Positions 20,633 to 63,401 of a stretch of 64,000 bases of DNA are shown here, in pieces. Below the pieces are notes generated by a model. It saw nothing but the letters and a program-made list of their open reading frames with translations. It was not told where the DNA came from and did no database searches. The position numbers and the translations under genes were made by a program. The DNA comes from Naegleria gruberi (taxonomy: Eukaryota). Positions within the stretch are counted from its first letter, which is position 1, and every line of letters begins with the position of its first letter. The stretch lies in assembly GCA_000004985.1 (NCBI GenBank), contig GG738890.1; one strand, written 5' to 3'.

Positions 20633-22848
20633 TTAATAACCTTGTTGCTGTTCAAAAGATGAGTTTTCTCCATCTTGGCGTTCTTCAGAGGATTGAGACA
20701 GTGAAAGGGCATTAGCTGTTTGTTTCATTAATTGAGTTACGGTAGCAACTTGTTTCTTAACTTGCTTGGCTTGCTCTTCCATATCTTGTGTTTCAAACAC
20801 TCCAAGACTCTTATAGATCGAATTCATGTAAGGAATCATTTTAACTTCAATAATCTTACGAAGGGCTTGTTTTTCCTTCTCCTTAGTTCCTAGCCCCGCA
20901 TCAGAAACTCTTTGTAAATGAATGAGAGCAGCTGTCTTTCTGTCAAGAGCATCTTCCAACATTTTTTGATGGTGATCATAGGCATCCAATTCCTCTTGAA
21001 GGGAAAGGATTGTTTCATCTCTTTCGTTTAATCTAGCTGTTAATGCAATCATGATATCTCGTTGTTTTAACAATAGTTGCTTATATCTGTCAACTTGTGC
21101 CTTATCTTCCTCTATGGATTGCCTTTCTCTCTCCAATTCTTGTAATTTTTTCTCATATTGTTTGTGAACTCGTTCATATTCTTGTTTAATCAACTTTCTA
21201 AAAGCTGGGGTTTCTTCAATTTTCTCACCACCAACTAGTAATTGGGATTGTAAGTGAGCAATCTTTTCTTCCAATTTTCTCTTCAAAGTCTTTTCGTGAA
21301 GGAACTCTCTTGATCTGGATTCCAATGCTTCAATGGCTGCCAATTTATCTTCTTCTGCTCTTCTTCTTTGTTCTTCTAATTCTAAAATTCTTTGTTTTCC
21401 AACAACAGTTTTACTCTTCTTTGAGAGCTCTATTCTGAGCTTCTTCAATTCTTTTTCGTATTTTCTAAGCAAAGCCCTTTGATCTAAATCCTCATTGACA
21501 GTTACAATATTCTTGATACATTTAGCTCTCTTGGCAAAGTGGAGAGTGGAGAGAGATTCACCGTGGAATTCCATAGCCGGAGAAACCATGGCCAACATGG
21601 TAGTCCTGCAATTACCTCCCAAACTGTCAGCCAATAAACTTGTAAGCTTTGAGTTTCTGTATGGAACATAGTTGTCTTTCTTTGTGAGAGCGGAAATAAC
21701 CATACCCAAACAAGTCAGAGACAAGTTGATCTTTTTAGTTTCTTCTAAAAGTTCTCCAGAGGCACCACTTACTGACACTCTTTCACTTCCAGCCAAGTCA
21801 ACAAGATTAAGCTTACCAATACGATAAGATTCTTTAACTTCCTGCACAACCTCTTTTCCAGTGATGGCGTCTGCATTGGCACAATCGATATCTTCCTCAT
21901 TTGAAATTGTTCTTTCCAAATGTTCTGCAACAATGATAAACACTGCGTGAGATCTACTACTTCCTTCGTTGAGTTTTGTAGGGGCTTTAGCTCTTCCCTT
22001 TCTTCCTTTGTCAATCAATTGATAAATTTCTTTAGGTGTTCTTACAACTTCTTCAGTCAACCCTTCAACGCAGGTTCCTTTCTTTTTATATTCTCTTATT
22101 GTTAAATTTGTTTTTGTTGGATCCAACAGATCATAAATTACTTCCTTATAAATTTGTAAGTAAGATGCTCTGATTAAAAAATTAACATTTGAAGATCCTT
22201 TTGTTTCAATATCTGATTCTATTTAAGAATATCGGAATCAATAAAACTTACATTCAAAAATGTCCTCTGTTGCTCTTGGAATAACACCTCTTAATTCCCT
22301 CTTATTTTCGAACCCTTCCATAGTATAGGTCTTGCCTGTACCAGTTTGACCGTATGCAAATAAGGTTGCCTGATTGAAAGTAAGATAAAATCAATCCCTT
22401 AACAACTTACATTGTATCCTTTAAGTACTGATAATACAGCTCCTCTGGCATGATTTTCATAAATTTCGTCTTGTCTACTATCCTCGCCATAGATATGATC
22501 AAATGTAAATGAATGTCCTACAGAGTAGTTTGCATCAGGTGAATCCGAAATCACCATGCTCTTCCTTGAATCACTAATCCTAATTGTACTGATAAGAGGT
22601 TCACCTCTATCTTGACATCCCTTTAATTCTCTTGGAAGGAATGGTCTAACACGAATAACAACGGTAATGTTTTCCTTTGGTGAATCATCATATTCAGCCT
22701 CGGCAACTGTGAGTTCTTCATGGTATTCTTCGTTTTCATCCTGAGCCAGATTATTTGTACTTTGACTTCTGTTGCCACTTGGCACAGCTCCTGAAGGCAA
22801 AGCAGTAATACTTCTTCTCAAACTTCCACTCGACTGACTTCTATTCAT
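20633..22848 (-). CDS. Kinesin motor protein with three exons: 22848..22411, 22369..22252 and 22212..20633. Introns are 22410..22370 (GTAAGT…CAG) and 22251..22213 (GTAAGT…CAG)
   Basis: Motor motifs: IRVRPF, GYN|[19 protein letters not shown] (P-loop, spanning intron 1), [16 protein letters not shown], and [18 protein letters not shown]. The neck sequence [16 protein letters not shown] is kinesin-2/OSM-3-like. A long coiled-coil tail follows. Exon phases check: 438 nt, 118 nt, then 1580 nt gives an in-frame total. Confidence 0.8.
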
Positions 22849-25796: not shown

Positions 25797-26866
25797 ATGA
25801 AAGAACATTCTCTGTTAAATTTACCCACGGAAATCCTACAATTAATTATTTCCTTCCTAATCTATGAATCTACATCAGAAAATTGGAAAGAATTACTTTC
25901 GAATGATTCGTGTTTCTATCGGCCAATTTCTATTCCACTTGAGAGAATGAAACAAATTGTCTTGAGTTTGCAATCTGTTTGTTCATATTTTCTAAAAGAT
26001 TATTTACCTATTGGAAAGAAATTAAACGAATTTTGGTTGCTTGTGATGCAAAGAGAATTTTACTATACGAAACAAGTGATCGAAAGTGAAAGGGAAAAGA
26101 TGAGATGGAAATCTAAACGATGTTATGGATTATTGAAAAGAATGGTGGAAATTAAATTTAATGATGCTTGTTATCCTATTGGAAACATTCAAAAGAATAA
26201 TCAAGATTCGTATAGATTCAAAGCATGTGTTATTGGAGAAAATGCTGGAGAAGAAAAGTTAACTAAAAGATACACGAACGATGACAATAATCAAAATTTT
26301 GACATTGAATTTATGTATCTCAATGATCGTGGTAAGTTTATTTGAGAATTATTGAGATTAATTTAAAGTTAGATAAAATAATTCGAAACTGTGAAGTTTC
26401 CATAATTGTCTTCCCATCGATTCATGAGTCGGATGATGCACTTGAGGATAGTTTAGCTCATTTAAGTTCTATAATACGTCAAGTGTTGAGAATTAGAGAT
26501 TTTGATGATGCTCCATGTGTGATTGCATTCTCAAAAAGTGATTCATTAGACGAATCTTCTTATTCTCAATTCGAAACAAGAACGAAAGAACAGTTTATTA
26601 GGAGAATAATGGCACAACAAGACATGCTTAATTGTGGAATTGTTCATAGGAGTGCTGAAAATGGAGATGGAATTGATGAGATTGTTAAAGAAGTTATCAA
26701 TAGATATTTAACTTTGGTTTCGTCCAAAAGTAGAACAACTACTAACAAAATTTACCAAAATTGGCATACAGGAACAATTTTGCAAAAAATTATTTCTTCA
26801 GAAAAAGAAATTTACTCAATTGTATCCAACGAAACAGGTGGAAGTTCAAGATGTGAATTGATGTAA
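25797..26866 (+). CDS. Two-exon gene (25797..26331 and 26373..26866; 41-nt intron GTAAGT…TTAG, phase 1) encoding an N-terminal F-box followed by a degenerate Ras-like small-GTPase domain
   Basis: F-box: LLNLPTEILQLIISFL. The GTPase-like fold has a degraded P-loop (KACVIGENAGEEKL) and a G4-like motif APCVIAFSKSD with a Ras-like C-terminal region. The splice restores one frame: …LNDR|DKIIRNCEVSIIVF…. Confidence 0.5.
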
Positions 26867-28162: not shown

Positions 28163-29031
28163 AAGTAATAAATAGTAGATTAAATACGCAGTTTAGGAAC
28201 TTGTTTGATATTCCAAACCTAATTAGAGCAAAAGACTACAGCACCACAGGTTCCCAAGTTGTCTCCAACCTCAGTACTGATGTGGCTCGACGATGCTTAA
28301 CTTCTCAAATCGGACGGGATGAGGTGCATTCATCGTGATATGGCCGTAGCCATTCAATTCATTATCGCTATGAATATAAAGAATATGGAACTTCTTTTGC
28401 ATAACTTAATGCAACTTAGTAATACTTAAGGTGGTTAACCTATTAAGCTCTGTAAAAAGTTATCCTTGATCAATCGATTCTCACGACCAACTCAATACAA
28501 ACTTTTAGTAATTAAGTTATAACAATTTAGTAACATTATTTTTGGATATTCTTTTTAGTTTCATTGGACGGGAAGCCTGCCAGGAATATGACTGTGCATA
28601 CAGTTGTATGAACAGTGAAGGCAACGAAGACAGAATCTTGTTGGTTCAGGTTTTGTTTGAAGAAATTGATTAGGTTGATCACCCTTCTATAAATTGAATA
28701 TTTGACTGGTAAATTGATGGATGCAAGTTTTGGTTTCTCATTTTCTGATCAAATCGAAATTGAAACTTCAAACAGTAGCTGCCTTAATTTAACCATTCTT
28801 AGCTTAAAATAAAATTTACAAACCAAGAAAGATGAAATTCTAAATTGATATGCTCGATTTTTAAAAAAACAACCACTAGTTTTTTTAAAAATCGCATGTA
28901 CTAAATAATTGTTCTGTACCATTACATTTTGTAGTTGAACATTTGCATTAATCACTTGATTATCATGGTTTTTGTTGTCTATTAAATTATGATATTTAAA
29001 AAATTCATAAACATAAATATTTTCAATATTA

Positions 29032-29278: not shown

Positions 29279-30202
29279 GTGTCATCACAGACTAAACCTT
29301 TAGATAATAATCAAAGTGGTTCTGGAAATAACCCAGTTTCATCGCAAACTAAACCCTTGGATAACAACCAAGGTGGTTCTGAAAAGAACCTAGATGCTAT
29401 TCTTCACGCCATCACTTTATTGGGTGAGAGAATTAAACATCTTGAAGCAGTTCCACCCATCCTTCAAGAAGCTGATCAACTTGATGACAACTCTGATGAG
29501 GATTCTGCTGAAGATTCCACTGGTAAACATTGGGGTATGTCAACAATCAAGGAGATTAGAAGACACTACGAAGTTGGCGACAGATTAGCCGATGGAGATG
29601 TCTTAAGTTTTGTTTCAGCCAAAACTCTTCGTCGTTATCAAACCAATGATGCTCTTTTGAATAGAGTTCAATCATTAATGGCTAGATTTGAATCCGTTAT
29701 TCATAATCATCGTACTTATCCCCGTTTGCAAGAAATCCAATCAAAGGGCTTGCAAAAGATGATGGAAATGTTGCATTTGAAATCTAGACTACTCCATTTC
29801 GCTTTAAGTCACCCAATGAACGTTGCTAACATCATTGAAATCACAGAATTAGTTTATCTTCTCTGTGAGGTCGAGAAAATTTTCTTGGAAGAAGGTTTGT
29901 TTGATAGTAATTTTGAGGTTGCCACCAATTTCATTCAACCATTCGTACAGAGCAATACGTTCGCTGACATAACCGAAAAAGCACGTAGTAAGAAGAGAGA
30001 GAAAGCTGTTATCAAGACTGCTTTTGTTGGAAAGATTCAAAAACCCAACAAAATGAAAGAGAAGTTGAACAAACCCTACACTTCTCAACACAACAGCTAC
30101 TCTAAGTCTTACAAGAGTAACTCCAATTTTCAAAAATCAGGAGACTCAAAACCAAAGTACAACAACAACAACAGTGGAGGATCCTTCAGCAAGGACCTCT
30201 GA
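29279..30202 (+). CDS. Retroelement ORF1, gag-like, with no obvious 5' ATG. It may be translated from an upstream or non-AUG start
   Basis: It is the first long ORF after the 5' repeat. It is helical and Q/N-rich with a basic C-terminus and overlaps the start of the RT ORF by about 30 nt. Confidence 0.5.
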   Translation: MSSQTKPLDNNQSGSGNNPVSSQTKPLDNNQGGSEKNLDAILHAITLLGERIKHLEAVPPILQEADQLDDNSDEDSAEDSTGKHWGMSTIKEIRRHYEVGDRLADGDVLSFVSAKTLRRYQTNDALLNRVQSLMARFESVIHNHRTYPRLQEIQSKGLQKMMEMLHLKSRLLHFALSHPMNVANIIEITELVYLLCEVEKIFLEEGLFDSNFEVATNFIQPFVQSNTFADITEKARSKKREKAVIKTAFVGKIQKPNKMKEKLNKPYTSQHNSYSKSYKSNSNFQKSGDSKPKYNNNNSGGSFSKDL

Positions 30203-32057
30203 CTTGGTGGGTTGTCGTCTTGGCAAGTTTGTAACTCAGTGGGAGAGTTACAACTTCAACCCATTCATAGTGGATTGGATTCGGAATGGAGTTCCAATCT
30301 ACTCAAATCCCACCCTTTGGAAAGAATTCAAGCAAAGGAAGAATTTCTCTCCAAAGGAGACCTCTTGGATGGATCAAGAAATCCAAGAGATGTTGAGTTC
30401 CAATGTCATCGAACTTGGAAACAAATCTACGGTACTCAATCCAATAAACATTGTCCCCAAGAAGGGCTCAGATCAGTTTCGTTTTATTCTGGATCTCAGG
30501 AAAGTAAACTTGGGGATCAAGGATACTTCGTTCAAGATGGACAACATTCAAAAATGTTTGAAGTTTGTTCAGAAAGGAATGTGGGCAACAAAGATAGACC
30601 TGAAGAAAGGCTATTTTCATGTTCCCATCAGAGAGAGTCATCGACACCTTCTGGGATTCAAGTACAAGAGCCTTGTATACCAATTCAAATGCCTTCCATT
30701 TGGTCTAAGTCAAGCTCCCAGAAACTTCACCAAGATAATGAAGGAACTAATGACCAAGTGGAGAAAGCAGGGCATCTTGGTATTCATTTACATCGACGAT
30801 ATATTGATTCTAAGCAACCACAAGGAAACTACCCAACAACACACAGACATAATCTTGAAAGACCTAGAAACATTAGGATGGATTATACAGAAGGAGAAAA
30901 GTGTGTTGACACCTTGTCAATGCATAGAATTTCTGGGTCTGGAATTGGATTTAATATCAGGTTTGGTAAAAATTCCACTCAACAAACAAGCCACTGCGAT
31001 AAAACTGATCCAAGACTTCTTGTCAGCGAACCAACTGAACAGATATGTAGCTTGCAAGAAAGTGGCTCAGTTTCTTGGGAAGATGGAATTTCTAACCCTA
31101 TCAAACCATTATTTTGCACCATTTCTGGCTCGTCTTCGAAAGGATATGGTGAAAGTAGTAAACGACAAATCCTGGCACGCATCGATGAGAATATTCAGAG
31201 GTGCAACCAAAGACCTCAAGATATTGAAAACTCTGATTCAGGAAAACAGTGGAGTTCCATTCGAACTGAACTCAATGAACCCGATTCGAGTGAATTCAGA
31301 TGCTTGCCCAACAGGTTATGGAATTCACGCAGAATCAACCATTACAATTGGAAGATTCAATTCCTCAGAGCACATCAATGTCAAAGAGTTAAAAACACTC
31401 CTCATTTTCTTCACACAAGCAGATCAATTAAACCTTTATGGTCCTGGTCAGGCATTCGAGATAAGAGGCGACAATGTAACAGCAATATCTTATATAAGGA
31501 GAGGTTACGGAGTCATCGAAGAACTCTCACAAATAGCCAGAGATCTCTACAAAATTCTAATGAGAAGAAAATGGTGGATTTCCAAAGTGATTTATATTCC
31601 CTCAAAGGAAAACATTTTGGCGGACAGACTGAGTCGTCTAACAGAATGGAAATCCTCTCAAGAACTATTGAATCTAGTTCAGACAGAATTTGGAGAACAC
31701 CACGTGGACAGATTCGCAACATTGGAATCAACCACAACAATTCAATTCAATTCATGGATAGAGAACGACACATTTCTGAACCCATGGGAACAAAATCTGA
31801 TGAGCTATTGTGCTCCTCCTCTGGGTCTGATATCTCAAGCTCTAGTTCACTGCATCAAGTCAGGAGCCAAAGCGACATTTGTGGTTCCAGATTGGCCCTC
31901 TTCGATATGGTTTCCAGTCTTGCTAAAGATATCAGAAAGAATGATAACTGTTTCGAGAAAGATGCTTATAATAACGCCCTTATCAGAGTTGCAAGACAAG
32001 TTCGAGAATTCGAATTTCCTGGTTGTTCAAGTGCATGGCAAGTTATTCAAACAATGA
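30174..32057 (+). CDS. Retroelement ORF2: reverse transcriptase plus RNase H
   Basis: RT motifs FKCLPFGLSQAPRNFTK and LVFIYIDDILILS. RNase H motifs IRGDNVTAISYIRRG and NILADRLSR, as in DIRS/Ngaro pol. Confidence 0.8.
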   Translation: MEDPSARTSDLVGCRLGKFVTQWESYNFNPFIVDWIRNGVPIYSNPTLWKEFKQRKNFSPKETSWMDQEIQEMLSSNVIELGNKSTVLNPINIVPKKGSDQFRFILDLRKVNLGIKDTSFKMDNIQKCLKFVQKGMWATKIDLKKGYFHVPIRESHRHLLGFKYKSLVYQFKCLPFGLSQAPRNFTKIMKELMTKWRKQGILVFIYIDDILILSNHKETTQQHTDIILKDLETLGWIIQKEKSVLTPCQCIEFLGLELDLISGLVKIPLNKQATAIKLIQDFLSANQLNRYVACKKVAQFLGKMEFLTLSNHYFAPFLARLRKDMVKVVNDKSWHASMRIFRGATKDLKILKTLIQENSGVPFELNSMNPIRVNSDACPTGYGIHAESTITIGRFNSSEHINVKELKTLLIFFTQADQLNLYGPGQAFEIRGDNVTAISYIRRGYGVIEELSQIARDLYKILMRRKWWISKVIYIPSKENILADRLSRLTEWKSSQELLNLVQTEFGEHHVDRFATLESTTTIQFNSWIENDTFLNPWEQNLMSYCAPPLGLISQALVHCIKSGAKATFVVPDWPSSIWFPVLLKISERMITVSRKMLIITPLSELQDKFENSNFLVVQVHGKLFKQ

Positions 32058-32962
32058 GAGAAATCAGTATTCTCTCTTCAATAGGTGAAAAAACCTTCAG
32101 AACCTACAACAGGATTTATGGTGGTTTTCTTTGGTTTATCAATGTGTTCGATCTTACCATTGATAATCCTTTAGCTATTGAATATTACATCTCTTACCTT
32201 CTGGTTAATGTTCAAGGTTACAAAGCAAATACTGTGCAAGCAGCTATTCAATTCTTTGCTAACCTTGATGGCAGAACAATTAATATTTCTGTCTCTTACC
32301 CTAAAGTTAAAAAAGGTGTCCTTAAGCTTTATTCACTTTCGGATAAAGTTTCTCTTCAAAGAGATCCGATAACAATCAAACATTTGACTGATTATTTGAA
32401 GTGCAAAGACAAAGTGGATAATTTCACTTTCCGTCTTACTTCTGCTATTCTAGTAATTGGTTTTAGGCTATTTGCAAGACCTGGTGAGGTTGCGCGACTA
32501 AAATGGTCATATATCAAGATGCTTAAAAAAGGAAGAATCAAGATTGATCTCAGTGGTCATAAAACTGACTTCTTCCTTATTGAAAAACCAATTACTATCG
32601 AAAGGAATACTAAAGATCCTAATCTTTGCCCAATTTCAATACTAAAATCATACATGGATTTGGTTAGGAATTTCAAAGATGCTGAGTCCCCATTATTTTC
32701 CTTCGAAAACGACAAATTCTTTGATTCAGATGGTATTTCAAAGATACTAAAGAATGCAGTGGGTATAGTAGATCAAGGCGTAACAGTCTCAGGTCACAGC
32801 CTTAGAATAGGTGCTATCACAGAAGGACTCAGAAAGGGTATGTCTACAACTGATCTAATGGTCGGTGCAAGACATAAAAAGGAAAAAAGTTTATTTCCTT
32901 ACCTTAGATCTGAAGGCCTAGCTGGCAAGAATTTCACTAACACTCTATTTTCTCTGGACTAA
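31907..32962 (+). CDS. Retroelement ORF3: tyrosine recombinase (YR) in the +2 frame relative to RT. Only the part from ATG 31907 is likely to be translated
   Basis: Catalytic-box residues are present: ARPGEVARLKW (Arg), GHSLRIGAIT (His-x-x-Arg) and LFPYLRSE (Tyr). The track ORF 30212-32962 extends this frame 5' through the RT region. Confidence 0.7.
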   Translation: MVSSLAKDIRKNDNCFEKDAYNNALIRVARQVREFEFPGCSSAWQVIQTMREISILSSIGEKTFRTYNRIYGGFLWFINVFDLTIDNPLAIEYYISYLLVNVQGYKANTVQAAIQFFANLDGRTINISVSYPKVKKGVLKLYSLSDKVSLQRDPITIKHLTDYLKCKDKVDNFTFRLTSAILVIGFRLFARPGEVARLKWSYIKMLKKGRIKIDLSGHKTDFFLIEKPITIERNTKDPNLCPISILKSYMDLVRNFKDAESPLFSFENDKFFDSDGISKILKNAVGIVDQGVTVSGHSLRIGAITEGLRKGMSTTDLMVGARHKKEKSLFPYLRSEGLAGKNFTNTLFSLD

Positions 32963-41665: not shown

Positions 41666-41738
41666 GGGGACTTGGCGCAGTCGGTAGCGCGTAGGTCTCA
41701 TAATCCTAAGGTCGTGAGTTCGATCCTCACAGTCCCCA
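41666..41738 (+). tRNA. tRNA-Met (anticodon CAU), elongator type
   Basis: GGGGACUUGGCGCAGUCGGUAGCGCGUAGGUCUCAUAAUCCUAAGGUCGUGAGUUCGAUCCUCACAGUCCCCA. The 7-bp acceptor stem is GGGGACU/AGUCCCC. The anticodon loop is CUCAUAA. The T-loop is GUUCGAUCC. A T4 run follows 3 nt downstream. Confidence 0.9.
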
Positions 41739-45296: not shown

Positions 45297-47998
45297 TTAT
45301 TGCTCTGAAACTGTGGTATTTCTTCGAGATCTTCTTTTCATTTGAATGTATTTCTCAATTTTCATTTGTTTTTGGAAAGCTAATGTTTTCTTGAATCTTC
45401 TGTGTGTATCAACGAGTAGCTCTGCAATTTCTCTTTCAAGTGTATCAAACAAAGTATCTGGTAAAAAGTCAACCTCACCAGTTAAAAATCCATCAACCAT
45501 TTCCTTAATTTCCTGAACATTGGCCTTGTTAGTATTAATAGTATGGTAACCATGCATATCTAAAAATTTTTTGTAAATTTCAAAGGCCTTTTCATATTTT
45601 TTCTGCTCCACAGTGTCAATATCCTTATCACTCAACCATCCAAATTTTTTGAGTACCTTAGCTCCTTGTAAAAATGTACCAGCCTTTTCTGTCACTTGTT
45701 TGAATTGCTTTTGTTTCTTGGATTTTGTAATAGAACTTGTTGTTGTGGAGGCAATACTACTAGAGGCTGATCCTATTTCTAAATCAGCTCCATACATTGC
45801 ATCTTGAGCTTCAATAGCTTTAATACATAAATCCTTATATATGGAAACTTCTTGTAAGAATAAGAAATTTTCCAAAGCCATTTCCTTTTCACAGTGAGCT
45901 CTGAATAAATCTCTCAATCGATCATCTGCCATAGTATCCAATAATACGATAGCATTTGCCTTCTTCCACCTTTTTCTATGGAGAGCATCCTTGTTAAGAG
46001 ACAATGTAAATGAAAGTATTAGGGCTGGAATTACAATTATCAAAGAGAGCACTCCTAATATTAGGTTCATACTCGTTGACACATAACTAATTTTATCATG
46101 TGTTGAAAACAAAGATAGAGAATATTCTCTAAGAATGCTGATAGAATCTGATACGTTTCTACTTCCTCCACAGTCCTCAAAGTCTTGTATTTGGTCAATC
46201 TTTTTAAAATTATTAAATAGTGTTGAGGGAAATAAAAACTTACAGCCGAGTCTGTTTGGTCATAATACATTTTGTTAACAATTTCTGTAAACGTCCACAA
46301 AATCTGTTTTGTAGGTGTTTCTATCAAGGATTTATAATCAGCTAAAGAGTACTGAGTAAACAAGTATGGTTTGTTTTCGTACTCATACTGCAAAGAATCA
46401 GATAAATTCCATAGAAAATTCCACGCCTGAGTCCTTAATGACATGTATGACTGATACCTTTTTGTTGAAAATCCTAAATATACTATTTGATGAGTTAAAA
46501 TATGCATATCACTAAGAACTGCTTTCAAGTCTGATGCTTGAGCATTAAGTCTTGCTTCTGTTTCCGATGTCCTATATATAAAGCTTAAAGTAACACAAAT
46601 TAATAATGAAACGAGAAGAATGATAGTTGCACTCAATCCAATTATGGAAAATAATTTCCAACAAGAGAGCTCAATCGTACCCCAAGGTGTATGTAGCTGT
46701 TTGGGTTTTTTGATATTGGTATCGTTTTCTTTTTCCATATCAAAGAGAATAGACCTGCTCACTGCCTTCAATTTTGATGTGTATTGTGGATTTTGTAGTG
46801 GTTGATTTGGAAAAGGATTTACAGTAAGATAATTGTTTGGTTTCAAGGTTGGAATAGGTTGAGGATTTGTTAAAGAGGAATGATTTGCAATGGTATCCCT
46901 CTCTGCCCTATTCATTTCAACAAAAGTTTCATCAAGATTATTCAGTATTGTTGGAGTAGAGTCGTGTGTCTCTAGTTTGGGTATTTCTCTTGGTGAGCTT
47001 TTAGGTGACTGATTGAGTCTTGAGGGATTAAGATTTGGAAGAGATTTCATCTTTTCAACTCTAGGAGACTCCTTAGGTTTTTTAGAAAGGCTTTGTGTTG
47101 TTACATCAGGTTGTTGTATTGGAATGGCAATGTCTACCGATTGCACAGTATTAGTTACTTGATTGATATTTGATTGGTTATTGTCATTAGAAAGTGAAGA
47201 GAGAGGTAATTGTGGAATTGCAGCATGATTGTTTACAATGGTTGAAGTTTGTTGTTTTGGAGGAATTACAAGTGTTGGCAAATTAATTGACAATTTGAAA
47301 GATGGAATATTACTTGGGGTGTGTTTTTGATGTTGTTGAGAAATTTCCTTAGACCGTTCTGATGTCTCCATTCCTGTTTGTATCAATGTTGTGGATGCTG
47401 ATGGTATTTCAAGTTGTAAATCCTTATTTGTTACAATCTCATTAGTTTCAATTACTTTAACTCTTCCCACATTATTACTTGGAGTTGGATCGAGTTGAAT
47501 GATAATTGGAGTGGCTGGCATCTTTCTTGATGAAAGAGAAGCAATTAAAGACCTAGTTGAAGTAGCAGCTGCCATTACCAATGACCCAATAATTGATGGT
47601 CTTCTGTTCGATGTTTCTGGTTTAATAGTATCTGTTTGATTCGAAGCTGTTGTATCGGTATCAATATTAATTTGAATAAGACTAACATTATCACTTTCTT
47701 TTGGTGCTTCAATGACAATTTCTGGTATTTCAAATTCAATGTTTGTTTTCTTAGTCTTGGCTTTAGGTCCTTCCTTCTTTTTAATAGGAGAAGCAACTCC
47801 CAACAGTAAAGAATTATTAGTAGTAGAAGATATTGCCGAGGGTGATAGTGGTTTTTTGAAACCACTTGTTCTGCTTGTATTCGATGAAGATGAATTCCTT
47901 GGAGAGGAAAATAAGTTACCACTGGGCGAAGCAGGAGGACTTCCCATTGTAGAGGGTTTCCTTTTGCTAGAAGTGTTGATGTTGTTTGGTTCCGGCAT
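45297..47998 (-). CDS. Two-exon gene (47998..46244 and 46199..45297; 44-nt intron 46243..46200, GTAAGT…AAAAAG, switching between the two overlapping track ORFs). It encodes a membrane-anchored RGS protein with a long S/T/P-rich N-terminal region, TM1, a 150-aa loop, TM2 and an RGS domain
   Basis: Splicing joins …YYDQTDSA|IDQIQDFEDCGG… in frame. TM1 is LFSIIGLSATIILLVSLLICVTLSFIY and TM2 is LILGVLSLIIVIPALILSFTLSL. The RGS motif is MADDRLRDLFRAHCEKEMALENFLFLQEVSIYKD. Confidence 0.65.
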
Positions 47999-59960: not shown

Positions 59961-60384
59961 TCATATATCAAAATTGAATAAATAATGAAATTGGCGGGAA
60001 TGATGAACTTTAAAAAACAAAAAAAAAATAAAGGTATTATCTATTGTTTGGAGTGACCAATTAAGGGAGGATACGGTTTCTTTTACAGTATTCCAGAAAG
60101 GATCGTTAAGTTGGTGATTCCATGCTGCTAACGCAATATTGCTTGTGATGGTGGATGTAGAGTTGAACATTCTTAAAGCGGTGCACACTGGTTCAATCGT
60201 GTAGAGATAAGAGGGCATGGTGAGTCCTAATCCACCTTCAGCTTTGGAGCCGTAAATGACTGTTTTAGAGGTCATGTTGTCTAAGCCAACTGAGGTTCTA
60301 AGGTGTGTTCTGCGACTAGGACGTCCAGGTGTTGAAGGTCTTTCAGGTTGGCACCACCAAACAAGAATATTTTGGAAGTGACAC
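59961..60384 (-). pseudogene. 5'-truncated fragment of a non-LTR (LINE-type) retrotransposon ORF2, covering the C-terminal/thumb region of RT
   Basis: An open frame of 141 codons with a stop immediately upstream. It contains …VIYGSKAEGGLGL…LYTIEPVCTALRMFNSTSTITSNIALAAWNHQL…, which resembles the YGS..W / L..IQNKALRIITGA…TP…L motifs conserved 3' of the RT core in Jockey/CR1/L1-type elements. Confidence 0.4.
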
Positions 60385-60513
60385 TATTTTGGACATTGTG
60401 GTTGTGATAATGGTGTTCAGTTTGAGGTTTTTAGATTTCTTATTCGCCAAGCGTTCTTCAGCTTTAGGAGTTCATCTGATGTCCAGGCCCTTTACGATAA
60501 AAAACAAAAAAAA

Positions 60514-60726
60514 ATGGCAACAAAGGAACAAGTTCATGGGTGCATTATAAAGGGAGATGTTGAAGGTTTACGTAATTTGGGTGATTTATCAGCTGTGATT
60601 AACGAGACCATTCCGACAACATGTCCCGAAGGTGCTTATTCCTTGTTGTTTTCTGCTGCTGGATTTGATAATTTGGAAATTGTCAAAATATTGTTGGATA
60701 CACAAGGTATTGTTGTTGATCAAGGA
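60514..60726 (+). CDS. First exon of an ankyrin-repeat gene (the track ORF is 60514-60783). The probable donor is GTAGGT at 60727 or GTAAGT at 60780
   Basis: The ATG follows an A9 run. The ankyrin-like sequence is …CPEGAYSLLFSAAGFDNLEIVKILLDTQGIVVDQG. Confidence 0.45.
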
Positions 60727-60779
60727 GTAGGTTTGATTGTTTTTTGTAATTTTTGTGGATTTGAATTTGTTTTTAGCAA

Positions 60780-61236
60780 GTAAGTTTGATGGAAAATTGA
60801 AATTATTAAAGATCTATTGTAAAGTGGGTATGTTGAGTTGGATTGAAATATTAATGATTTGTGTTATAGTTTGTAAGTTGTTGTTGATTTCTTTGAATTT
60901 TGATTGGAACGTTTCAAGTCTGTAAGTTTTTGGGTTGAAGATTTGTTTCTAATGATTTTAGTTTGTAAGTTTCAGAAATTATGAGATGGTTTATTAATTT
61001 TAATAGGGAAATGTAAGTACTGCTCAATTATTTCATAATTTTAACTAATTTAATTTAGGAAGTAAGTTTAATTTGAAAATAATCGTGAAATAGTTACTTT
61101 GTTTAGGATGTAAGTTGACAAGCTCACTAAATTCTCATTCAGATTTGTTACAAGTTTGTAAGTAATCGCAATGCAATTACCTTCTTAAACTCAAATCAAA
61201 CAGTATGAGGTGAGTATTTATTGAGCATAAATATAG
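60780..61236 (+). other. Array of nine consecutive mini-intron-like units of 43-52 bp (one is 93 bp). Each starts with GTAAGT or GTGAGT and ends with a T-rich tract plus AG. The units are separated by 3-6 nt spacers (TTT, TCT, TTT, GGAAAT, GAA, GAT, TTT, TATGAG)
   Basis: Donor-like hexamers sit at 60780, 60873, 60922, 60965, 61013, 61062, 61110, 61158 and 61210. The internal sequences are not conserved between units. The array lies between ankyrin exon 1 and an ankyrin-coding exon starting at 61237. Confidence 0.4.
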
Positions 61237-61397
61237 AACATGATAAGTCTCCTCTCTATAATTCATTGAGAAGAAAAAACTTTGCACTTGCTAAACTTTT
61301 ACTTCGTGCTGGAGCTACAATTGATTCCAGTGTCAGATCCTTTATAGATATTGATATTGATAAATTGAATGAGGAAGCTTTGGCAGAATCTAACTAG
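61237..61397 (+). CDS. Terminal ankyrin-repeat exon (…HDKSPLYNSLRRKNFALAKLLLRAGATIDSS…), probably belonging to the gene that starts at 60514
   Basis: An open frame from the acceptor AG at 61235-36 to the TAG at 61395-97. The ankyrin consensus is SPLY..…A..LL.AGA..D. Confidence 0.35.
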
Positions 61398-61451: not shown

Positions 61452-63134
61452 TTAGTTTCTCTTTTCATAATCAAATATGTATGGTTCAAGAACGGTTCTT
61501 GTAACAATGTATGTTTCCTTGATCTTAGCTTGTTGTTCCTTTAAATGTTCTGGAACCTTAATTCTATATTGTTTCAACAAATAGACAAGGATTAATTTGA
61601 TTTCCAATAAAGCCATTCTACGTCCCAAACAATCTCTTGGTCCAATCGAGAATGTGATCAACTCGTCTTTTTGGAAATCCATCGATAAATTACCCATAGT
61701 TCCCTTATCCATCTTATCTTCCTCTGTTTCAATCTTTTCTGGATTGAAGAAACGATCGAATTTGAAATCATCCATAGCATTATTATGAGAAAGCTTATGT
61801 TGTGCATATAATCCCACATTAACAACAGTTCCTTCCTCAAAGAATTGTCCACCAACTGTTTCACCTCCCTTCTTGGTAATGACTCTTGTGGCACCACCAA
61901 CTGGAATCTTGACACGGAATGCTTCCTTCATGAATGAGGTCAAGTATGGAAGCTTTTCAGTGATATCTTCAAATTTAATAGAGTCAAGTGATGGAATATC
62001 TCTATCAATTTCCTCAATTAACTTTTCTTGAATTTCTGGATTTGTGGCCAACAATCTCAACATGAAATTCAAGGATGTTGAACTAGTTTCAAATCCAGCA
62101 AAGAAGATAATGAAAATGGCACTGACTAATTCATCATTGGACAAACGTTCCTCCTCTGACAATTTCAAAGTATTGGCACTCTTCAATAATAAACTCAATA
62201 AATCTTCATCATCTTTAACTTGATGATCGAGTTCAGCTTCCTTAGTCTTTTTGAGAACCATTGTCATGGCAGTATCTCTGAATCTATTTTTGGCATCTTT
62301 AAATCTTTTGAAAATACCAAATGGAACAATTTCGAATAGATATTCAGGGAAGACGAATTTGTACATTAATCCAGTTAGTAAATCAGAAATCCAACCATGG
62401 ACTTCATCTCTGTGTTCTGGAGTCTTGTCAAAAATTTCAATATCATAATCAAAAGCAACTCTGTTAATGACAGTTAAAGTGACTGATTTCAATTCTTGAG
62501 TTGTGTTAACATTTCTAATATTTCCATTCTTGTCTGCATCATAATATTTAGTCCAAAATTGAATCATTTTTGGCAATTCTTCCATTGTAACTCTGAAAAC
62601 ATTTCTCAAATGTGAAACATTACTAAAGATTGGATTAGACAATGTTCTATGCTTTTTCCAAAGTGGATTATTCGAATCTGCAGAGAATACATTAGGTCCA
62701 AACAATCCAACAGGTGCCAAGAATTCACCCTTTCCAACAGTTCTATACTTTCTAATAAGAACTTCCTTGATCATTTCCTTATCCTTTGCAATGGTGAAAT
62801 AAACATCTGGTCCTTGTTGAATTTTAATCATTGCCTCATTTGGATATTTCTGAAATGCCTTCATTCCACACAAATAACCATGAAAGACGAACATTTCTCC
62901 ATCAATGAGTGAATCAATAAACGAAGGAAAGAATGAAACATATCCAGGAATGTGTCGATACTTGAAATAAGTTCTCAAGAATCGGAGAATATAGGTAATC
63001 AAATAAATAATCAATAAACATGACGAGATGGAAATCAATTGCAAAAATCCAAACCCATTTTCATCACCAAACAATGCACGAATTAGAAATGATCCTCCAC
63101 CATCATCAGATGCAACAATATTTGAAGTAGTCAT
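61452..63134 (-). CDS. Cytochrome P450 monooxygenase with an N-terminal membrane anchor
   Basis: Heme-binding loop: FSIGPRDCLGRRMALLEIKLILVYLL. I-helix: FFAGFETSSTSL. K-helix ExxR: KEAFRV. ATG at 63134. Confidence 0.85.
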   Translation of the reverse strand: MTTSNIVASDDGGGSFLIRALFGDENGFGFLQLISISSCLLIIYLITYILRFLRTYFKYRHIPGYVSFFPSFIDSLIDGEMFVFHGYLCGMKAFQKYPNEAMIKIQQGPDVYFTIAKDKEMIKEVLIRKYRTVGKGEFLAPVGLFGPNVFSADSNNPLWKKHRTLSNPIFSNVSHLRNVFRVTMEELPKMIQFWTKYYDADKNGNIRNVNTTQELKSVTLTVINRVAFDYDIEIFDKTPEHRDEVHGWISDLLTGLMYKFVFPEYLFEIVPFGIFKRFKDAKNRFRDTAMTMVLKKTKEAELDHQVKDDEDLLSLLLKSANTLKLSEEERLSNDELVSAIFIIFFAGFETSSTSLNFMLRLLATNPEIQEKLIEEIDRDIPSLDSIKFEDITEKLPYLTSFMKEAFRVKIPVGGATRVITKKGGETVGGQFFEEGTVVNVGLYAQHKLSHNNAMDDFKFDRFFNPEKIETEEDKMDKGTMGNLSMDFQKDELITFSIGPRDCLGRRMALLEIKLILVYLLKQYRIKVPEHLKEQQAKIKETYIVTRTVLEPYIFDYEKRN

Positions 63135-63310: not shown

Positions 63311-63401
63311 TGATGAGTGTGGGATTTGAACCCACGCCCTTGCGGAACACGGTATTAATCATACCTTAACGTGTCGTCTTAGACCACTCGACCAACTCAC
63401 C
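63311..63401 (-). tRNA. tRNA-Leu (anticodon AAG), class II with a long variable arm and an 11-12 nt intron 3' of the anticodon
   Basis: GGUGAGUUGGUCGAGUGGUCUAAGACGACACGUUAAGG[uaugauuaaua]CCGUGUUCCGCAAGGGCGUGGGUUCAAAUCCCACACUCAUCA. The acceptor stem is GGUGAGU/ACUCAUC with a G2-U71 pair. The anticodon stem ACACG/CGUGU flanks the intron. The T-arm is GUGGG-UUCAAAU-CCCAC. Confidence 0.85.

Follow-up and report, generated by a model that had tools for sequence, protein, structure and literature searches.

Gene model and organization of the array

The analysed window is a gene-dense stretch of nuclear DNA, 64,000 nucleotides long, from Naegleria gruberi NEG-M, with a GC content of 33%. At 60514-61397 on the plus strand it carries what is, judging from the sequence, probably a real but unannotated gene. 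Its predicted product is an ankyrin protein of ~132 residues and three repeats. The sequence for the loop joining repeats 2 and 3 would be split by eleven canonical U2-type mini-introns into ten micro-exons, and this array would have been made by local intron propagation. Exon 1 (60514-60726, 71 codons) starts with an ATG behind an A-run, encodes the N-terminal capping repeat and ankyrin repeat 2, and ends with ...GIVVDQG, the last codon being GGA. Exon 12 (61248-61397, 49 codons plus the stop TAG) begins with the codon TCT and encodes ankyrin repeat 3 (SPLYNSLRRKNFALAKLLLRAGATID...) and a C-terminal tail.

Between these two exons, eleven units resembling introns follow one another in the region 60727-61247 of the plus strand; they measure 38-50 nt and recur every 43-53 nt. 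Intron 1 (60727-60776, 50 nt, GTAGGT...TTTTTAG) is followed by CAA (Q, 60777-60779), intron 2 (60780-60824, 45 nt, GTAAGT...GTAAAG) by TGG (W, 60825-60827), intron 3 (60828-60869, 42 nt, GTATGT...TTATAG) by TTT (F, 60870-60872), and intron 4 (60873-60918, 46 nt, GTAAGT...TTCAAG) by TCT (S, 60919-60921). Intron 5 (60922-60961, 40 nt, GTAAGT...TTTTAG) leads to TTT (F, 60962-60964), intron 6 (60965-61006, 42 nt, GTAAGT...TAATAG) to GGAAAT (GN, 61007-61012), intron 7 (61013-61058, 46 nt, GTAAGT...ATTTAG) to GAA (E, 61059-61061), and intron 8 (61062-61106, 45 nt, GTAAGT...GTTTAG) to GAT (D, 61107-61109). The series is completed by intron 9 (61110-61154, 45 nt, GTAAGT...TACAAG) with TTT (F, 61155-61157), intron 10 (61158-61203, 46 nt, GTAAGT...AAACAG) with TATGAG (YE, 61204-61209), and intron 11 (61210-61247, 38 nt, GTGAGT...GATAAG). 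All 11 introns are in phase 0. The predicted spliced string reads ...GATCAAGGA-CAA-TGG-TTT-TCT-TTT-GGAAAT-GAA-GAT-TTT-TATGAG-TCTCCTCTC..., and the ten micro-exons, which account for 36 of the 399 coding nucleotides, together supply the residues QWFSFGNEDFYE of the loop between repeats 2 and 3.

The units have the features of U2-type GT-AG introns, namely a donor consensus extending to position +6 and a 3' AG. Their donors comprise eight GTAAGT and one each of GTGAGT, GTATGT and GTAGGT; their acceptors are TAG (six), AAG (four) and CAG (one). A previous reading made from the sequence alone (hereafter, the sequence-only reading) had counted nine donor hexamers. The eight GTAAGT (60780, 60873, 60922, 60965, 61013, 61062, 61110 and 61158) and the GTGAGT at 61210 are all found in place, but the GTAGGT at 60727 and the GTATGT at 60828 had been missed, and the array counts eleven units. 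That reading also let an ankyrin exon end near 60726 or 60779. The former position is the end of exon 1 and is followed by a further unit (from GTAGGT at 60727 to TTTTTAG at 60776), then by CAA. The spacers of 3-6 nt that it reported between the units were confirmed, since each unit closes with AG and the distance from there to the next donor is always 3 nt (eight cases) or 6 nt (two cases).

The reason why no open frame had been obtained lies at the last acceptor. The sequence-only reading started the downstream ankyrin exon at 61237, after the ATATAG ending at 61236; use of this nearer AG would give an intron 11 of 27 nt and break the frame. With the GATAAG ending at 61247, all spacers and junctions are in frame and the predicted 132-codon coding sequence stays open. 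The four AAG acceptors of the array speak against the model; an AAG acceptor has a precedent in the window, in a 44-nt intron that restores the frame at 46243 on the minus strand.

This intron (46243-46200) and one of 41 nt at 26332-26372 on the plus strand are the two introns of the window that can be demonstrated, as they restore the frame between adjacent ORFs. Both start with GTAAGTTT and end with TAG or AAG. The array units agree with them in their GTAAGTT...(T/A/C)AG style and in length (38-50 nt versus 41 and 44 nt), as had been proposed before. Motifs resembling yTnAy are located 9-25 nt upstream of the 3' splice site in eight of the 11 units; with so much A and T in the sequence, such motifs are too common to be discriminating, and of four control introns one (the candidate at 21772 on the minus strand) also has none. 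The minus strand across the array contains no ORF or gene.

Coding potential of the exons and the micro-exons

Codon-usage log-likelihood is positive for exon 1 in the model frame (+0.53 bits per codon) and negative in the two other frames. Similarly, exon 12 scores +0.50 bits per codon in the model frame only, and the array itself is negative in all three frames. The twelve micro-exon codons include no stop, while 75% of random sets of intron triplets contain one. The ATG lies in an A-rich context, as in the annotated neighbouring genes. At the protein level, Pfam Ank_3 recognizes exon 1 with 26 bits (cut-off 22.3), and an Ank_2 alignment bridges exons 1 and 12 with 21.5-24.5 bits, under its cut-off of 27.3. 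Retention of any single intron introduces a premature stop before repeat 3. Since one unremoved intron is enough to truncate the protein, the splice signals would be kept by selection.

The same frame properties also allow exon 1 to be joined directly to exon 12. In this case, 60727-61247 would be one long intron of 521 nt, the protein would count 120 residues, and the internal sites would serve as decoys or as stepping stones lost along with the micro-exons, or would be left over from a collapsed array. This join is indeed in frame, all junctions being in phase 0, and the 120-residue product scores slightly better with Ank_2 (24.5 bits with all micro-exons skipped versus 21.5 with all included). 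Long introns are also accepted in N. gruberi, whose annotated introns have a mean length of 203 bp, with 1.7 exons per gene (PMC8296547). However, the outer GTAGGT is a weaker donor than the eight internal GTAAGT, each of which is paired with an acceptor at a distance typical for the species and, under intron definition, would be used first. A long intron also leaves unexplained why ten donors and as many acceptors have been preserved, with their 3n spacing, while the interiors are randomised. As for the loop, inclusion of all micro-exons makes it exceed the canonical ankyrin spacing by ~7 residues, a point against the micro-exon model, and skipping of all of them leaves it ~5 residues too short, a point against the single intron. 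Finally, AG does not abut GT at any junction of the array, at variance with internal sites of the recursive kind. We regard removal of the whole region as a single intron as unlikely.

Chance controls and repeat structure

In the 64-kb window, GTAAGT occurs 19 times on the plus strand and 7 times on the minus strand, and the presence of eight within 457 nt has a Poisson probability of ~7e-15. The longest chain of donor, AG, short spacer and next donor comprises 11 units in the array, compared with two elsewhere in the window on both strands and a maximum of three in 100 Markov-2 simulated windows. Likewise, a pattern of three such units was observed three times versus none in 100 dinucleotide shuffles. 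A search of bacterial and archaeal genomes (596 Gb) for the three-unit pattern in its TAG form gave 37 loci, of which all but one are simple or tandem repeats. The scan of viral contigs and of prokaryotic genomes for the three-unit pattern gave only repeats, plus one chance match each.

The sequence-only reading had described the unit interiors as dissimilar and not a minisatellite, which holds with one exception. TRF found no tandem repeat at a score of at least 30, no consistent alignment of the units was obtained with MAFFT, and the mean pairwise similarity score of the interiors equals that of composition-preserving shuffles. The exception is provided by introns 2 and 3, which lie next to each other and agree in 17 of 18 positions (P ~0.025 for any adjacent pair) over the common sequence ATTGAAA(T)TATTAA(A/T)GAT. 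Together with the junction AG-TTT-GTAAGT, which occurs three times in the array, this match could be a faint trace of common descent. At the level of the sequence, the conserved positions of the array are only those that form the 5' and 3' splice consensus. The array was also compared with its surroundings: a blastn-short search against the 64-kb window returned only chance matches of 12-15 nt, and no introner-type copies are located elsewhere in it. The dispersed satellite that had been named as a contrary outcome is, within the window, represented by no further copy of the unit.

We also considered that the array has nothing to do with splicing and represents a diverged minisatellite or a DNA- or RNA-binding motif (AG-NNN-GTAAGT, or ACTTAC on the minus strand) with a period of ~48 nt. 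The regular spacing of 43-53 nt would suit such an element, and other database matches to the three-unit pattern, among those listed, are simple or tandem repeats. Nevertheless, the units share no similarity, their conserved positions are the exact splice consensus on the coding strand, the flanking exons are in frame only with the units removed, and there is no minus-strand ORF or gene. Moreover, the same architecture occurs with a clear coding read-out in the metagenomic locus L009 described below. A non-splicing array is thus highly improbable.

A second array in a metagenomic ankyrin gene

JGI metagenomes were scanned with the pattern GTAAGT-N28-44-AG-NNN-GTAAGT-N28-44-AG-NNN-GTAAGT, which gave at least 120 loci. 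Among the matches listed, nearly all are microsatellites of the (GTAA)n type or tandem repeats with near-identical units. One locus stands apart as an independent analogue, L009 (Ga0207864_1037532), a contig of 1425 nt with 17% GC and an array at 943-1425. Its ankyrin gene contains five mini-introns (40, 35, 38, 44 and 36 nt) and four one-codon exons, AAA, TGG, AAT and AGT (K, W, N and S), at the same inter-repeat loop as the Naegleria array, and GTAAGT appears again at the 3' side of the repeat exon that follows the array. Upstream of this gene, in an AT-rich region, a direct repeat of ~44 nt (TGATTCCATAAGAGTCAATGAAATCTAAATTTACTAATAATTT) is present at 1-45 and 139-183 of the contig.

The spliced product of L009 aligns without gaps to eight intronless homologues through NAKN-K-W-N-S-TPLH, with 42-56% identity, and it is precisely the residues of the four one-codon exons that complete the 33-residue repeat register. 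Given this gap-free alignment and register, the predicted one-codon exons of L009 are clearly coding and the mini-introns would be removed. The contigs of the intronless homologues look bacterial. The intron interiors of L009 are significantly alike (1 of 1000 shuffles), indicating that they are copies of one another and supporting local copying. The first intron of L009 (82 nt) holds a decayed TTTAG-TTT-GTAAAC junction, showing that arrays can collapse or fuse into longer introns.

These data bear on both sides of a single 521-nt intron in Naegleria: the decayed junction gives a precedent for fusion, but the micro-exons of L009 are required for the canonical repeat length. In a BLASTP alignment, the Naegleria residues Q-W-F-S are placed against K-W-N-S of L009, and the remaining eight (F, GN, E, D, F and YE) appear as an insertion. 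The second micro-exon is TGG (W) in both arrays (60825-60827 of the window and 1190-1192 of L009), and the fourth encodes S in both. This agreement could reflect a shared ancestry of intron positions or be a coincidence.

Annotation, homologues and strain comparison

A collection of 5.8 billion proteins contains neither exon 1 nor exon 12, save for one unspliced metagenomic ORF of 89 residues. Seven intronless ORFs of the window are identical to N. gruberi NEG-M proteins (EFC407xx / XP_0026734xx) of this collection; since it includes the N. gruberi proteome, the ankyrin gene is unannotated. Searched against 1.84 billion representative proteins, exon 1 found no orthologue and no close homologue. 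Besides the self-match, only multi-repeat proteins were recovered, with 31-50% identity. All 81 matches among the representatives are multi-repeat proteins, and the two inspected (P0009 and P0010) are ankyrin-repeat proteins.

The 89-residue ORF originates from the metagenome run ERR1078381, whose contigs are nearly identical to the window and stop at 60826, and which consequently have no comparative power over the array. Over exon 1 and introns 1-2, this second strain differs from the window by one synonymous change in 313 nt. Exact look-ups of the genes nearby, and of ORFs lying in exon 12 or inside the array, gave no further contigs. The run, labelled a metagenome, includes DNA of an N. gruberi strain ~98-100% identical to NEG-M, and the first 22 nt of its Logan contig L001 are Illumina adapter sequence (CTACACGACGCTCTTCCGATCT).

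Absence from the annotation raises the question of whether the gene is dead or dying, the array having once been spliced at a locus that is now unexpressed or nonfunctional, with signals that have not yet decayed. The lack of annotation and of a detected orthologue would fit such a state, as would the squeezed position against a convergent P450 gene, the two stop codons being 54 nt apart, and the 470 nt upstream, which are indel-rich between strains. On the other hand, no damage is seen in any of the 22 splice sites, in the two larger exons, in the start context or in the frame, and the second strain differs only by the single synonymous change mentioned above. In addition, exons of 3 nt are outside the models of gene predictors, and this alone can account for the lack of annotation. 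That the gene is dead or dying seems to us quite unlikely, even a little more so than a single long intron.

Proposed splicing and origin of the array

In the preferred reading, a functional gene with eleven spliced mini-introns, each of them would be recognised by intron definition. Their removal would have to be sequential, and probably proceeds 5' to 3' while the RNA is being made. Each 3-nt exon is shared by two successive introns, as the 3' exon of the first and the 5' exon of the second, and cannot serve two assembled spliceosomes at once. Since the micro-exons are multiples of 3 and the introns are in phase 0, pairing of any donor with any downstream acceptor stays in frame. All 14 spacers of the two arrays are multiples of 3 (1/3^14 if unconstrained). 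Should the Naegleria array have been built by duplication of a 3n unit, its spacer lengths would not count as separate evidence of translation. Splice-site pairing in such a crowded region is probably sloppy, and the 3n spacing fits selection for frame safety.

As for its origin, a mini-intron may have been copied again and again onto adjacent codon boundaries, or a codon and its intron may have been duplicated as a unit, and the two arrays provide partial evidence for such copying. The interiors would then have diverged while selection retained the splice signals. The unchanged protein length of L009 argues for insertion and against duplication of a codon plus intron, while the eight extra residues and the three TTT exons of Naegleria suggest that duplication of codon and intron could also have occurred. 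The randomised interiors of the Naegleria array imply that it would be old and held by selection against intron retention.

A broader possibility, which we put forward tentatively and hold to be doubtful, is that mini-intron arrays stepping codon by codon through ankyrin hairpin loops are a recurrent and so far unrecognised gene architecture in protists with tiny introns. They would be made by local copy-and-paste onto adjacent codon boundaries and exploited as a frame-safe ladder of splice sites, with up to 2^10 loop variants per gene at the ankyrin binding surface. Genes with many introns are described in the Acrasis kona genome paper and may hold further arrays like that of Naegleria (PMC11589745).

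The three readings first offered for this region can be assessed on these grounds. A run of tandem mini-introns with micro-exons of 3-6 nt gives the best fit, in view of the canonical sites, the intron lengths, phase 0, the open ankyrin-like frame and the L009 analogue. Amplification of an intron with only its ends under selection is plausible as the origin of such a run, but does not stand as an alternative to it. Regarding one long intron with recursive or decoy sites, the recursive part fails, AG never abutting GT, and the long intron itself is left as the improbable alternative weighed above.

Comparison with known systems

The segments removed in recursive (ratchet-point) splicing of Drosophila and vertebrates are taken out stepwise, 5' to 3', via internal sites with strong GTAAGT donors. 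At these sites AG and GTAAGT are juxtaposed (AG|GTAAGT, a zero-length exon) and nothing is left in the mRNA, whereas no such juxtaposition exists in the Naegleria array, where the intervening 3 or 6 nt would be retained and translated. The scale differs too, recursive segments measuring kilobases and the Naegleria units ~45 nt.

Runs of very short symmetrical exons are known from the micro-exon genes (MEGs) of Schistosoma, in which symmetrical exons of 3-81 bp make up most of the coding sequence (PMC10526429). The Naegleria array resembles them in its ten consecutive symmetrical exons of 3 or 6 nt (phase 0-0), the skipping of which keeps the frame and can vary the protein. However, MEG introns reach 5 kb, compared with 38-50 nt here, and MEGs encode secreted proteins that are mostly micro-exon, whereas in Naegleria, a heterolobosean amoeba unrelated to Schistosoma, the 36 nt serve one loop of an ankyrin protein. 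Hence neither a coding sequence built in bulk from micro-exons nor long flanking introns are seen in the Naegleria gene.

Single ultra-short exons have been described, of 1 nt in Arabidopsis and of 3 bp in Drosophila hth and human MAP4K5 (PMC4674806, PMC7392893, PMC8632122). They show that the spliceosome can include exons of 1-3 nt, but they are isolated between ordinary introns, unlike the predicted Naegleria series of ten with minimal introns. In the literature on Naegleria intron arrays, tandem introns and one-codon exons, we came across no account of one-codon exons in series with minimal introns between them. If true, the Naegleria array would be an extreme test of the spliceosome, with ten consecutive exons of 3-6 nt, near-minimal introns and an ordered, sequential splicing that is forced.

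The origin of new spliceosomal introns is a long-standing question, and clear recent cases are scarce. To our knowledge, no published model predicts copies at consecutive codon boundaries with an unchanged protein length, as in L009. Mechanisms of intron gain, such as tandem genomic duplication and intron transposition, have been reviewed (PMC3443670), as have introners (PMC9860276). These models predict related introns within one gene, which is what we see in L009 and, weakly, in introns 2 and 3 of Naegleria. In the classical duplication model the intron derives from duplicated exon sequence around AGGT, and introners form dispersed multi-copy families; in contrast, the copies of Naegleria and L009 sit at consecutive codon boundaries. 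If the preferred reading is true, the two loci would be a natural record of local intron multiplication at single-codon spacing, L009 being the young version (introns alike, protein length unchanged) and Naegleria the old one (interiors randomised), and the mechanism of local intron gain would become directly testable. The array is thus relevant to the multiplication of introns and to how small an exon can be. As the locus is unannotated, standard gene finders would miss genes of this kind, and the phenomenon could be commoner than it appears.

Other features of the window

Upstream of the ankyrin gene, the region 60030-60510 contains no intact ORF and shows at least seven indels of 2-35 nt relative to the near-identical strain (L001). 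On its minus strand, a stop-interrupted open stretch of ~130 codons is present, without Pfam match, and the region may be a decayed gene. The ankyrin locus is situated between an RGS-domain gene and a P450 gene. The latter, downstream, is an intronless ORF of 560 residues at 61452-63134 on the minus strand that encodes a cytochrome P450 (Pfam E 3e-60) and is convergent with the ankyrin gene. Its exact sequence is absent from the protein collection, unlike most of its neighbours, and the public model probably differs in its start codon or by a predicted intron.

Several RNA genes are scattered in the window. A solitary 5S rRNA gene (28233-28351, minus strand, 105 bits) lies among protein-coding genes and is the only rRNA gene detected in the window. 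A tRNA gene of 91 nt at 63311-63401 on the minus strand was called by both Rfam and ARAGORN, with its anticodon not resolved; it probably contains an intron. A normal tRNA-Met is located at 41666-41738. Finally, two long ORFs of 627 and 916 residues overlap in different frames at 30174-32962 on the plus strand, where the GC content of the window is highest (40%), and could represent a frameshift, an intron or low-complexity coding sequence.
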